Virus record (IMG/VR): IMGVR_UViG_2695420579_000010
Reading direction: 5' to 3' (one strand)
Length of the DNA stretch: 4,463 bases
Source of the DNA: a virus
Lineage: Duplodnaviria > Heunggongvirae > Uroviricota > Caudoviricetes
Of this stretch, positions 1 through 4,030 are shown one piece after another. Both the position numbers and the translations under genes were made by a program. The notes beneath the pieces are model-generated. The model saw only the letters and a list, made by a program, of their open reading frames with translations. It was not told the origin of the DNA and searched no databases. The stretch's first letter is position 1. Each line of letters opens with the position of its first letter.

Positions 1-109
1 AGGGATTTCTGCACCCTCAAATCATCAGGAGACCACCCGAAAGGGCGGGGAGCAGTCACACATCTGTTTCCGATAGCCCCGTTCTAATGCTACACTCTTT
101 GATATTTTT

Positions 110-796
110 ATGACCCCAATAAACATATTTATGACAGTTGCTGATTTCAAACGGCCCAAATTGGAGCTCCCAAACGGGGCAAACAAACTACTACTGCACT
201 CTTGCTGTGCTCCATGTTCCGGTGAGGTGATGGAGGCGCTTCAGGCCTCGGGAATCGACTACACCATCTTTTTCTACAACCCGAACATTCATCCTCAGAA
301 AGAGTATTTAATTCGTAAGGATGAGAATATTCGCTTTGCTGAACAACACGGCGTGCCGTTTATTGATGCTGATTACGACACAGACAACTGGTTTGAACGA
401 GCCAAAGGAATGGAATGGGAGCCCGAACGAGGGATCCGTTGCACCATGTGTTTTGACATGCGTTTTGAGCGGACAGCGCTGTACGCCGCTGAAAATGGTT
501 TCAGTGTGATCAGCAGTTCACTGGGCATTTCACGCTGGAAAAATATGCAGCAGGTTAACGACTGTGGGCGGCGAGCCGTCGCGCATTATCCGGGCATGGT
601 GTACTGGGATTATAACTGGCGCAAGCAGGGCGGCTCGTCCCGTATGATTGAAATCAGCAAGCGCGAAAAATTCTATCAGCAGGAATATTGTGGCTGTGTG
701 TATTCTCTGCGCGATACCAATCTACACCGCAAATCTCAGGGACGCCCTCTTATCAAAATTGGTCAACTCCACTACGGTAAAGAAGAGAAGGAGTGA
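110..796 (+). CDS. queH: Epoxyqueuosine reductase QueH-like protein (DUF208 family)
   Basis: 228-aa ORF with the motifs I associate with QueH/DUF208 Fe-S enzymes: N-terminal [21 protein letters not shown], central RCTMCFDMR and C-terminal QEYCGCVYS. Stop TGA 794-796. Start is uncertain (ATG 110 or ATG 131); neither has a clear Shine-Dalgarno. Confidence 0.75.
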
Positions 797-817
797 TTTT
801 ATGGGGCACCTTTCTGA

Positions 818-847
818 TTGATTTCATATTGGCGAGGTAAGTAGAAT
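818..847 (+). promoter_or_regulatory. Candidate sigma70 promoter of the hok/mok transcript
   Basis: -35 TTGATT (818-823), 18-bp spacer, -10 TAGAAT (842-847). Predicted start near 852-855 coincides with the beginning of the 5' element that is complementary to the 3' UTR. Confidence 0.4.
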
Positions 848-851
848 GACT

Positions 852-902
852 GCGGGTGCTTGAGGCTATCTGCTTCAGGCATGAACACCAAAAGGCAGAT
901 AG
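852..902 (+). promoter_or_regulatory. hok mRNA 5' leader elements (tac-like 5' end plus stem-loop)
   Basis: GCGGGTGCTTGAGG (852-865) is the reverse complement of 1236-1251 apart from one bulged base. An 8-bp inverted repeat CTATCTGC (867-874) / GCAGATAG (895-902) follows. The layout resembles plasmid R1 hok mRNA as I recall it. Confidence 0.55.
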
Positions 903-904
903 AG

Positions 905-975
905 AAAAGCCCCAGTTAACATTACGCGTCCGGCAAGACGCTTAACATTAATCTGAGGCCAATTTCATGCTTTGC
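905..975 (-). ncRNA. sok: Candidate Sok-like antisense RNA (inferred, boundaries approximate)
   Basis: Inference only. Minus-strand -35 TTGCCT (reverse complement of 1005-1010), 17-bp spacer, weak -10 TAACCT (reverse complement of 982-987) would start an antisense transcript near 975 that covers the mok start codon at 967-969. A 5-bp hairpin lies at 926-941 on the minus strand, but there is no clean U-tract terminator. Confidence 0.25.
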
Positions 976-1179
976 ACATGTAGGTTAGCCTCTTACATGC
1001 CGAAAGGCAAGGAGAAGCAGGCTATGAAGCAGCAAAAGGCGATGTTAATCGCCCTGATCGTCATCTGTTTAACCGTCATAGTGACGGCACTGGTAACGAG
1101 GAAAGACCTCTGTGAGGTACGAATCCGAACCGGCCAGACGGAGGTCGCTGTCTTCGTAGACTACGAATCCAGGAAGTAA
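967..1179 (+). CDS. mok: Mok-like reading frame (in-frame N-terminal extension of Hok)
   Basis: 70-codon ORF beginning MLCTCR, 19 codons upstream of and in frame with hok. This is the same arrangement, with a similar N-terminus, as E. coli mokC/hokC as I recall them. Confidence 0.5.
   Translation: MLCTCRLASYMPKGKEKQAMKQQKAMLIALIVICLTVIVTALVTRKDLCEVRIRTGQTEVAVFVDYESRK
1024..1179 (+). CDS. hok: Hok/Gef family type I toxin (HokD/HokC-like)
   Basis: 51 aa, MKQQKAMLIALIVICLTVIVTALVTRKDLCEVRIRTGQTEVAVFVDYESRK: one hydrophobic transmembrane helix followed by the conserved LCE..R.G..EVA tail of Hok proteins. AAGGAG at 1009-1014 lies 9 nt before the ATG. Stop TAA 1177-1179. Confidence 0.9.
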   Translation: MKQQKAMLIALIVICLTVIVTALVTRKDLCEVRIRTGQTEVAVFVDYESRK

Positions 1180-1187
1180 GAGTGACC

Positions 1188-1215
1188 GGGCGGGGAGCTG
1201 ATCCCATCCCCGCCC
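1188..1215 (+). promoter_or_regulatory. Perfect 9-bp hairpin in the hok 3' UTR
   Basis: GGGCGGGGA (1188-1196) pairs with TCCCCGCCC (1207-1215) around a 10-nt loop. No U-tract follows, so it is a structural element rather than a terminator. Confidence 0.5.
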
Positions 1216-1235
1216 ACCTCTGATGTGTCAGGCAT

Positions 1236-1251
1236 CCTCAACGCACCCGCA
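1236..1251 (+). promoter_or_regulatory. fbi-like 3' element complementary to the hok mRNA 5' end
   Basis: CCTCAACGCACCCGCA (1236-1251) pairs with 852-865 as 6 bp plus 8 bp with a single bulged C, the long-range 5'/3' pairing described for hok mRNAs. Confidence 0.55.
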
Positions 1252-1256
1252 CTTAA

Positions 1257-1311
1257 CCCGCCCATCGCTGTGATCTCTCAGCGTTTCGGCGGGTTTTTTG
1301 TTGTTTATTTC
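1257..1311 (+). terminator. Rho-independent terminator of the hok transcript
   Basis: CCCGCC (1257-1262) pairs with GGCGGG (1288-1293), with an inner CGCTG (1266-1270) / CAGCG (1279-1283) stem, followed by TTTTTTGTTGTTTATTT. Confidence 0.65.
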
Positions 1312-1319
1312 CGGTGAAT

Positions 1320-1347
1320 TTGATTCGCGCACCTTCGCAGATAGAAT
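1320..1347 (+). promoter_or_regulatory. Candidate sigma70 promoter of the X1 unit
   Basis: -35 TTGATT (1320-1325), 16-bp spacer, -10 TAGAAT (1342-1347), immediately after the hok terminator. The same TAGAAT precedes repeat copy B at 2146-2151, where the -35 would fall inside the N gap. Confidence 0.4.
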
Positions 1348-2590: not shown

Positions 2591-3649
2591 GTGCGGGTAT
2601 TACTTCGACCTGTTCTGGTACCGGAACTCGGTCTGGTTATCGTTAAGCCAGGCCGTGAATCAATGTCAGCATTCCATAACGGCAGAATACTGGTGGAGCC
2701 GGAACCAAAAAGCATGCGTAATCTGCCGTCCGGGGTCGTTCCTGCCGCTCGCCAGCCGCTGGTGGAAGACAAAACATTGCTGCCGTTTTTCAGTAACGCA
2801 CGGGTGATTCGTGCTGCTGGTGGTGCTGGTGCATTGTCTGACTGGCTGTTGCGCCATATTAAATCCTGCCAGTGGCCACACGGCGATTATCATCACAGCG
2901 AAACCGTCATTCACCGTTATGGTACCGGCGCAATGGTGTTGTGCTGGCACTGCGACAACCAGCTGCGTGACCAGACATCCGAATCACTCGAGCAACTTGC
3001 TCATCAAAACCTGTCAGCATGGATGATTGACGTCATCGGTCACGCAATAAGCGGTACGCAGGAGCGTGAATTATCTCTGGCTGAATTATCCTGGTGGGCG
3101 GTCCGCAATCAGGTGGCGGACGCGCTACCGGAAGCGGTATTACGTCGTTCGCTGGGGTTGCGTGCGGAAAAAATTCGCTCTGTGTACAGTGAAAGCGACA
3201 TCATACCGGGAGAGCAGACAGCCACCAGCATACTGAAGCAGCGCACAAAAAATATTGCGTTACTGCCTCACGTCCACCAGCAACAGAACCCACCACAGGA
3301 AAAGACGGTGGTCAGCATTGCCGTTGATCCGGAGTCACCGGCTCAGTATCTCCAGCGCCAGAAATCACAACGGGAAGAGATGCCTGTATACACGCGCTGG
3401 GTAAAAACGCAGAAATGCATGACGTGTGGCAATCAGGCAGATGATCCGCATCACATCATTGGTCATGGACTGGGAGGGATGGGAACAAAGGCTGATGATT
3501 TGTTTGTTATTCCGTTATGCCGTAAATGCCGTAACGAACTACATGCCGGAGTAAAAGATTTTGAAGAGAAACACGGCAGTCAGCTGTTGTTGCTGATTCG
3601 TTTTTTAATGCACGCGAGAAATTCGGGTGTTCTGAAGTGGAAAGCATAA
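2591..3649 (+). CDS. DUF968 / YdfU-like prophage protein with Cys/His-rich modules
   Basis: 352-aa ORF from GTG 2591 with GGAGG (2582-2586) 4 nt upstream; alternative ATG at 2663. The translation resembles Qin prophage YdfU as I recall it. Contains CWHC and a C-terminal CMTCGN..HHIIGHG..CRKCRNELH motif. Stop TAA 3647-3649 abuts the rusA ATG. Confidence 0.8.
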   Translation: MRVLLRPVLVPELGLVIVKPGRESMSAFHNGRILVEPEPKSMRNLPSGVVPAARQPLVEDKTLLPFFSNARVIRAAGGAGALSDWLLRHIKSCQWPHGDYHHSETVIHRYGTGAMVLCWHCDNQLRDQTSESLEQLAHQNLSAWMIDVIGHAISGTQERELSLAELSWWAVRNQVADALPEAVLRRSLGLRAEKIRSVYSESDIIPGEQTATSILKQRTKNIALLPHVHQQQNPPQEKTVVSIAVDPESPAQYLQRQKSQREEMPVYTRWVKTQKCMTCGNQADDPHHIIGHGLGGMGTKADDLFVIPLCRKCRNELHAGVKDFEEKHGSQLLLLIRFLMHARNSGVLKWKA

Positions 3650-4030
3650 ATGACCGAGCGCATAGAATTTGTTTTACCTTACCCGCCGACGGTGAACACT
3701 TACTGGCGTCGTCGTGGCAGCACATATTTTGTATCAAAAGCCGGGGAGCGTTATCGCCGGGCAGTGGCGCTTATTGTTCGCCAGCAGCGGCTGAAATTAA
3801 GCCTGTCCGGAAGGTTGGCAATAAAAATTATTGCAGAACCACCGGATAAGCGCCGCCGTGACCTGGACAATATTCTGAAAGCGCCGCTGGATGCGCTGAC
3901 GCATGCGGGGTTGCTAATGGACGATGAGCAGTTTGATGAAATCAATATCGTTCGTGGTCAGCCAGTATCTGGTGGACGTCTGGGGGTGAAGATTTACCCC
4001 ATAATGCATGAAGAGCAGGTCAAAAAATGA
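3650..4030 (+). CDS. rusA: Crossover junction endodeoxyribonuclease RusA (Holliday junction resolvase)
   Basis: 126 aa with RusA hallmarks: N-terminal LPYPPTVNTYW, the acidic catalytic region RRRDLDNILKA..DAL..AGLLMDDEQ. Its stop overlaps the Q start (ATGA at 4027-4030). Confidence 0.9.
   Translation: MTERIEFVLPYPPTVNTYWRRRGSTYFVSKAGERYRRAVALIVRQQRLKLSLSGRLAIKIIAEPPDKRRRDLDNILKAPLDALTHAGLLMDDEQFDEINIVRGQPVSGGRLGVKIYPIMHEEQVKK

Follow-up and report, generated by a model that had tools for sequence, protein, structure and literature searches.

The queuosine (Q) found in tRNA is made by way of epoxyqueuosine (oQ), which QueA forms on tRNA-Asp, -Asn, -His and -Tyr (PMC4646009, PMC10570037, PMC9508795). 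Reduction of oQ to Q is then carried out either by QueG, which uses cobalamin (B12) and two [4Fe-4S] clusters, or by the unrelated enzyme QueH, which uses a [4Fe-4S] cluster and an adjacent iron (PMC4646009, PMC10570037, PMC9508795; titles of PDB entries). In E. coli the QueG step is cobamide-dependent (Frey et al. 1988, as cited in PMC4646009), and QueG is one of four cobamide-dependent enzymes of this organism (PMC11841063). Here we describe a queH gene carried by a temperate phage. It lies in viral record IMGVR_UViG_2695420579_000010, a stretch of 4,463 nucleotides (nt) that was analysed whole (hereafter the window) and that holds the early-right/nin region of a lambdoid prophage. We consider it likely that the gene belongs to a functional QueH cassette that was captured once, is expressed from its own promoter in the lysogen and completes Q-tRNA when B12 is scarce. 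The parts of this cassette are the following.

131..796 (110/131-796 with the upstream extension), + strand: queH, 221 amino acids (aa), predicted epoxyqueuosine reductase QueH (PF02677/DUF208), from profile, RefSeq, alignment and structural model
57..130, + strand: leader of the queH cassette, delimited by the convergence of upstream sequences
88..96, + strand: putative extended -10 element TGCTACACT, from conservation, with a predicted transcription start at about 103
110..130, + strand: in-frame upstream ATG extension, probably untranslated, from the RefSeq start, orthologue alignment and a frameshift in allele L064

An initial annotation of the window, made from its letters alone, had assigned the gene to the DUF208/QueH family on the basis of cysteine motifs and considered it intact. 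Both statements held. The open reading frame (ORF) is uninterrupted over 110..796 on the + strand, including the motif EYCGC, and ORF 131-796 is predicted to encode a full-length QueH. The PF02677 (QueH) profile matched it end to end (positions 1-174 of 175, E=1.9e-65, 220.6 bits against a cut-off of 23.5), and the protein sequence matched that of the solved T. maritima QueH 7lc5 (E=5e-22). Seven cysteines (C25, C26, C29, C104, C107, C187 and C189, in the 221-aa numbering from Met131) are invariant in 19 proteobacterial sequences, and six of these are also invariant across the QueH proteins of Thermotoga, Bacillus, Monoglobus, Ligilactobacillus and Acinetobacter. C29 aligns with D13 of T. maritima, the residue mutated in PDB 9dco (D13N); the other seven of eight diverse QueH sequences have a cysteine there. 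The CCAPC form is thus the norm of the QueH family, and T. maritima, with an Asp at the third position, is the exception. When an AlphaFold2 (AF2) model built from a shallow alignment (predicted local distance difference test, pLDDT, 68; predicted template modelling score, pTM, 0.68) was searched against the PDB with Foldseek, the top five matches were all T. maritima QueH (7lc5, 7lc7, 9d86, 9deu and 9dco; E about 1e-8, template modelling score 0.70-0.75 normalised to the target). The next fold matches, the PP-loop-type enzymes LarE, TtuA and TilS, were four orders of magnitude weaker.

Translation of queH almost certainly starts at ATG 131 (221 aa) and not at ATG 110, because RefSeq annotates ATG 131 as the queH start in a genome that is 99.9% identical over positions 1-1320 of the window, because orthologues from 18 other sequences align from Met131, and because a 1-nt insertion between the two ATGs in prophage allele L064 puts ATG 110 out of frame. 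What had been drawn as an ORF at 110-796 is a real coding sequence, with its start almost certainly at the second ATG.

The genomic setting of the gene is that of a prophage. In E. coli FDAARGOS_944, which contains a region 99.9% identical to window 1-1320, queH lies inside a complete prophage (integrase to tail genes) adjoining ybhA. There it stands between replication genes followed by a DUF977 gene (Ren-like, phrog_142) on one side and the series hokD-DUF1367-DUF1364-Q on the other; the equivalent of the mok/hok of the window is annotated hokD by RefSeq. A sequence type (ST) 131 bloodstream isolate carries the same queH-hok block in a different prophage, beside ompW and with different head genes. 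In IMG/VR, 189 viral contigs encode queH, and the isolated phage HannyBb carries it as well. For comparison we used 83 Escherichia loci, consisting of the best 80 of these 189 contigs together with locus L001, phage HannyBb and E. albertii. All 83 have queH 3' of a DUF977/Ren-like gene or a small hypothetical gene, and 5' of hok or nin genes. Escherichia queH was found solely in lambdoid prophages; one record deposited as a plasmid bears the same prophage gene block. The placement of queH in a lambdoid prophage, as the initial annotation had it, agrees with phage genes on both flanks. That queH is instead a core chromosomal gene with the prophage edge at 796-818 was excluded by those flanking genes and by the distribution of queH.

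queH is an accessory gene in E. coli. Of 5426 complete genomes, 1046 (about 19%) contain it, among them the ST131 bloodstream isolate, APEC O1 and IHE3034; 985 of the 1046 cover at least 80% of the gene, and nearly all matches are single-copy and chromosomal. queG is present in all 5426 genomes, in keeping with the expectation that E. coli hosts normally use QueG. As to the distribution of queH, a question raised at the outset, it is an accessory gene, and in every one of the 83 Escherichia loci compared it occupies the same phage slot.

Sequence variation among these loci points to strong constraint. All 83 prophage or viral queH ORFs are intact at 221 codons; their 18-19 nucleotide alleles encode six protein alleles, and the polymorphic codons comprise 45 with synonymous changes only and eight that change the residue. 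Mean pairwise divergence is 0.10 at synonymous sites (dS) and 0.003 at nonsynonymous sites (dN), giving a dN/dS of 0.03. By the same method five neighbours gave 0.10 (ydaV-like replication gene), 0.11 (DUF1367), 0.15 (RusA), 0.30 (DUF977) and 0.62 (hok), which makes the value for queH the lowest of the neighbourhood and that for hok about 20-fold higher. On this sequence record a decaying passenger is ruled out. The same data bear on the idea that queH is a neutral hitch-hiker on the hok/sok addiction module and functionless in E. coli. In 741 genomes queH and hok do occur as a single block, and QueG covers the reaction in every E. coli genome. A neutral passenger would, however, gather nonsynonymous changes and frameshifts, contrary to the intact ORFs and the low dN/dS; queH persists where a restriction-modification system replaces hok; and very recent clonal spread as the source of an artefact is made unlikely by the dS between alleles, about 0.1-0.17. 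Hitch-hiking is strongly disfavoured and the least probable of the explanations considered here. The lowest dN/dS of the neighbourhood, together with high identity to housekeeping orthologues (see below), argues for an unchanged enzymatic role.

Comparison of the loci delimits a single-gene cassette of about 740 bp, from about 57 to 798, made up of a leader of about 75 nt and the ORF. We draw its extent from two boundaries. On the left, 18 distinct upstream sequences, found among the 83 loci in unrelated contexts, converge at about 57, and most E. coli genome matches begin at 60; on the right, related phages without the gene (mEp460, Evi, Tritos, 933W and others) resume homology at 799-834, at least 3 nt past the queH stop codon. 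The insertion site of the cassette is between the Ren-like gene and the promoter of hok/sok. Just 5' of the left boundary, at 34-50, there is a GC-rich hairpin with a GAAA loop (CCACCC-GAAA-GGGCGG), which has a perfect CCGCCC/GGGCGG stem in some alleles. No U-run follows it, and it is therefore not a canonical terminator.

The leader holds TGCTACACT (88-96), which does not vary among the 18 upstream variants from prophages. In Scandinavium, Kluyvera and E. quasihormaechei the chromosomal queH has either TGCTACAAT or TGCTACACT 43-44 nt before its ATG, and Enterobacter ECC-175 has CGCTACAAT at the matching position; the bases around the element do not align. The element TGCTACA(C/A)T is matched a single time in the window, where the expected number is 0.04. 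We infer that TGCTACACT has the form of an extended -10 element (TGn + TAnnnT), and its conservation suggests autonomous transcription of queH. An RNA structure or riboswitch in the leader was also considered and rejected: the leader is AU-rich and unstructured (the fold of 97-170 is no better than shuffled sequences, z=0.18), and the sole match in an Rfam search of the window was the sok/hok RNA at 854-1029.

It may be that queH is instead a lytic-cycle gene, transcribed only from pR within the early-right/nin operon, in which case conversion of oQ to Q would tune the tRNA pool for the phage late genes. queH is oriented like the early-right genes, the upstream replication and Ren-like genes are not separated from it by a terminator, the -35 region is weak and a consensus scan called no promoter, and the gene is retained in HannyBb, a plaque-forming or inducible phage. 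However, a -10 element that was inherited from the chromosome and is strictly conserved in all prophage variants would be needless if read-through from pR sufficed. Reshaping a stable tRNA pool within a single lytic cycle also seems a small gain, and many carriers may be non-inducible, yet queH has a dN/dS of 0.03. We think it unlikely that queH serves the lytic cycle only, although the lytic and lysogenic readings are compatible and not exclusive.

Outside Escherichia, the closest relatives are the chromosomal QueH proteins of Scandinavium, Kluyvera and Enterobacter (89-92% aa identity), followed by those of Erwinia, Pantoea, Serratia, Photorhabdus and Providencia (79-86%). Identity to the prophage protein is still 75-80% for the QueH of Sphingomonas, Stenotrophomonas and Pseudomonas, and judging from these alignments the orthologous group is unusually conserved and under tight constraint. 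None of 79 orthologue loci from other genera has any of the phage genes of the queH prophages within 8 kb; queH adjoins icd, rluE and nudJ in Enterobacter and tonB in Serratia. Neighbour joining placed the prophage alleles, those of HannyBb and E. albertii among them, in a single tight clade nested within the chromosomal QueH of Enterobacterales; its sister group is Scandinavium, Kluyvera and Enterobacter, and a copy from a Klebsiella IncF plasmid lies nearby. The simplest reading of this tree is that queH was captured once from the chromosome of a member of the Enterobacteriaceae and then spread by phage mosaicism.

Other mobile or unusual copies were seen in the course of this comparison. 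QueH is matched by 99 Klebsiella plasmid records, with an aa identity of about 90% for the full-length copies among those listed. On the K. pneumoniae IncFIB/IncFII plasmid NZ_AP024573.1 (L165, 7001-7669), queH sits in a mosaic flanked by insertion sequences, with dgt, a gene for a NACHT protein and a ThiF/Mov34 pair as neighbours. The Klebsiella plasmid queH is a second, independent mobilisation. A second mobile lineage on E. coli plasmids (57 records in a band of 60-80% nt identity) was rejected, as the one inspected proved to be a pseudogene fragment: plasmid pO103 of enterohaemorrhagic E. coli (NC_013354.1; L164, 6003-6158) holds 156 nt of a QueH pseudogene at about 73% nt identity, and this fragment probably accounts for most of the E. 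coli plasmid matches. A tblastn search of 50,697 phage records returned 25 matches; those other than HannyBb (unannotated faecal contigs and 'phage' records of 280-380 kb) were judged to be host DNA and were not counted. Three Stenotrophomonas chromosomal queH genes (in the set L141, L143, L148 and L152) share a conserved long hairpin (e.g. GGACCCCATCGCCGCCGTTGCCGGCGGTGGGGTC) about 20-55 nt before the start, which may be a regulatory element or the terminator of the upstream gene. L148 has the hairpin too; this contig bears the label Bacillus subtilis but is probably mislabelled or contaminated.

E. coli lacks de novo cobalamin synthesis. Since its sole chromosomal oQ reductase, QueG, needs cobalamin, a prophage copy of QueH should free the Q-tRNA of the lysogen from this requirement. 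We propose that a lambdoid phage captured queH once, as native promoter region plus ORF, from an Enterobacteriaceae chromosome; that the capture was inserted between the Ren-like gene and hok/sok of the early-right/nin region; and that it later spread among E. coli and E. albertii prophages by mosaic recombination. In the lysogen, queH would probably be transcribed from its own extended -10 promoter, and after induction read-through from pR, ending at the hok terminator, would add to this. The prophage QueH most likely carries out a cobalamin-independent reduction of oQ34 to Q34 in lysogen tRNA-Asp, -Asn, -His and -Tyr. The lysogen would then complete Q-tRNA regardless of corrinoid supply, when B12 is scarce or its uptake is lost. 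Enzymatic activity, expression in the lysogen and a benefit under B12 limitation are all things that we infer. That queH acts as a lysogenic-conversion gene that uncouples Q-tRNA completion from B12, with the Q/oQ state of tRNA differing between strains and set by phage, is a possibility that we put forward more tentatively. An effect of queH on the decoding of NAU/NAC codons, as first suggested, would be purely speculative.

Recruitment of the enzyme to a substrate other than tRNA, such as 7-deazaguanine in phage DNA, or to defence or counter-defence chemistry, seems very improbable. Phages do use preQ0-pathway enzymes for DNA modification (PMC6884629), proteins of the QueC family are described in defence systems (PMC13639016), and the slot next to queH holds addiction or defence cargo, either hok/sok or a restriction-modification pair of Dcm and NgoMIV type. 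However, neither a DpdA/TGT-like transglycosylase nor genes for preQ0 synthesis occur in the two queH prophages with full annotation, and such genes are also absent among the 25 proteins of L001 and three of the window that served as tblastn queries. No PADLOC family matches QueH, and QueA, QueG and QueH were not found in the deazaguanine-modifying viruses analysed by Hutinet et al. 2019 (PMC6884629). With 79-92% identity to housekeeping QueH and all invariant residues kept, the prophage protein has little room for a new specificity.

Several points weigh against a functional cassette expressed in the lysogen, the reading that we prefer. The support for this particular copy comes from sequence and a structural model. 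Confidence in the structural model is moderate (mean pLDDT 68), and an NCBIfam scan of the protein gave no family, an uninformative result, though PGAP names the protein QueH. A generic sigma-70 scan (at least 9 of 12 matches) found no promoter 5' of queH and there is no recognisable -35 hexamer, and the promoter argument is therefore one of cross-species conservation only. A Shine-Dalgarno sequence is absent before ATG 131. A pattern scan found no terminator anywhere in 1-1450, and the first terminator 3' of queH is the stem-loop and U-run of hok (1255-1305); nothing separates queH from hok, which means that queH is not a fully insulated unit. The initial annotation had considered that queH would be a moron; the sharp boundaries of presence and absence fit that description, the missing terminator does not, and the conserved promoter-like element is a putative promoter of its own. 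A composition anomaly was considered and rejected, as the GC content of queH (0.47-0.50) is like that of its flanks. Finally, we know of no established phenotypic difference between oQ- and Q-tRNA; the selective benefit is therefore conjecture, though the purifying selection shows that a benefit exists.

Beyond the queH cassette, the window contains the following features.

818..847, + strand: mok/hok promoter-like site TTGATT-18-TAGAAT, from a pattern scan
854..1029, + strand: hok mRNA 5' region and sok antisense region (Rfam RF01794, full-length model, 117 bits against a threshold of 59, E=3.9e-27)
967..1179, + strand: mok reading frame (Pfam Hok_Gef, PF01848, E=9.8e-23), with hok (51 aa) nested at 1024-1179
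1255..1305, + strand: terminator of the hok transcript (stem-loop and U-run, -24.7 kcal/mol, z=-5.9)
about 818-1305: hok/sok locus as a whole
1429-1716: 95-aa ORF (phrog_340, unknown function)
1755-2061: N-terminal half of a DUF1367 protein
2062-2137: run of N, 76 nt
right of the N gap: second, diverged copy of the start of the 95-aa ORF
2591-3649: DUF968/HNH protein
3650-4030: RusA
4027 onward: start of antiterminator Q

The hok module that had been noted directly downstream of queH is evident both from the Hok_Gef match and from the sok model. In 13 IMG/VR loci (class d2) the hok ORF 3' of queH is replaced. For example, in L070 (8845-10861) the conserved hok 5' region is followed by a type II restriction-modification pair, namely a C5 cytosine methylase (PF00145, E=4e-54; Dcm) and an NgoMIV-family endonuclease (PF09015, E=1e-126). 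The slot adjacent to queH therefore swaps addiction and defence modules while queH stays. Further along, tRNA genes lie 3' of the antiterminator in both queH prophages (L001, 23385-23695; L171, 25430-25682), with Ile, Arg, Thr and Gly tRNAs in one and Ile and Arg tRNAs in the other; none is a queuosine-modified species.

The right part of the window calls for caution. A 163-nt direct repeat, 94% identical between its copies (1354-1516 and 2159-2321), brackets the run of N and spans the promoter region and the 5' end of the 95-aa ORF. Left of the N gap the gene order is that of FDAARGOS_944 (the 95-aa ORF, then DUF1367), and right of it lies a different nin region (DUF968, RusA, Q) with its best match in another strain (97.7%). 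The window looks like a scaffold that fuses two prophage nin regions at a common repeat, and gene order across the gap is therefore not to be trusted. The hok transcript (818-847) and the 95-aa ORF (1320-1347) have the same promoter-like hexamer pair in front of them, TTGATT ... TAGAAT, and a second copy of the promoter region of the 95-aa ORF is found at about 2125-2160, at the edge of the gap.

The name of the enzyme is not new to these genomes, as PGAP/RefSeq already calls the E. coli proteins 'epoxyqueuosine reductase QueH'. In PHROGs v4, phrog_3217 ('unknown function') matches residues 34-221 (E=1.7e-138); its profile of 188 positions begins 33 residues in and lacks the N-terminus with CCAPC. 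In HannyBb, the only isolated phage that carries queH, the product is annotated hypothetical. Both the phrog_3217 and the HannyBb annotations could be corrected to QueH. A full-text literature search found no paper on prophage or phage QueH, though a passing mention in the primary QueH papers is possible. Phage carriage of QueH thus appears to be undescribed, for a known enzyme in a known type of vehicle; that both the enzyme and the moron concept are familiar limits the import of the finding.

If the prophage QueH is active, about one fifth of E. coli genomes would escape the B12 dependence of Q by means of a phage gene. Because QueG of K-12 depends on B12 and K-12 synthesises none, its tRNA is expected to stay at the epoxy-Q stage unless a corrinoid is supplied. 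Lysogens, among them the extraintestinal strains of ST131 and ST95 type that occur among the carriers, would make full Q in settings where QueG is idle, which would include B12-poor host niches and cells that have lost the receptor BtuB under pressure from phages or colicins. This would make it the first temperate phage documented to supply a Q-pathway enzyme for tRNA anticodon modification. It would add a translation-related enzyme to the cargo of lysogenic conversion, it bears on how tRNA-modification data are read across strains, and it provides a natural genetic means of asking whether the function of oQ differs from that of Q.

The prophage protein resembles T. maritima QueH (7LC5, 7LC7; DUF208, PF02677, IPR003828) in its full-length domain and predicted fold, in its cysteine framework (CC..., CxxC, CGC) and in the expected reaction, oQ-tRNA to Q-tRNA without cobalamin. 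It differs in sequence (about 30% identity), in having a Cys where T. maritima has D13, and in that its gene sits in a temperate phage and not in a chromosome. With E. coli QueG (yjeS) it would share a pathway step in the same cells, whereas the two belong to unrelated folds and families, QueG using B12 and two [4Fe-4S] clusters (PMC4646009), and queG is core to all 5426 genomes whereas queH is present in about 19%. Chromosomal QueH proteins of Enterobacterales have the same length and 79-92% aa identity, and the queH genes of Scandinavium, Kluyvera and Enterobacter share the -10-like element at the same spacing, but those genes lie among housekeeping genes and without phage neighbours. Phage clusters for 7-deazaguanine (preQ0/archaeosine) DNA modification draw on the same queuosine-pathway repertoire; they carry FolE, QueD, QueE, QueC and DpdA, none of which is present here, and act on DNA. 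Among lambdoid morons and lysogenic-conversion genes (bor, lom, hok/sok), queH is likewise a single extra gene whose two neighbours adjoin each other in related phages, and it has a promoter-like element of its own and a likely benefit to the host. Unlike them it is without its own terminator and its expression in the lysogen is only putative, and its cargo is a tRNA-modification enzyme instead of a surface, virulence or exclusion protein.

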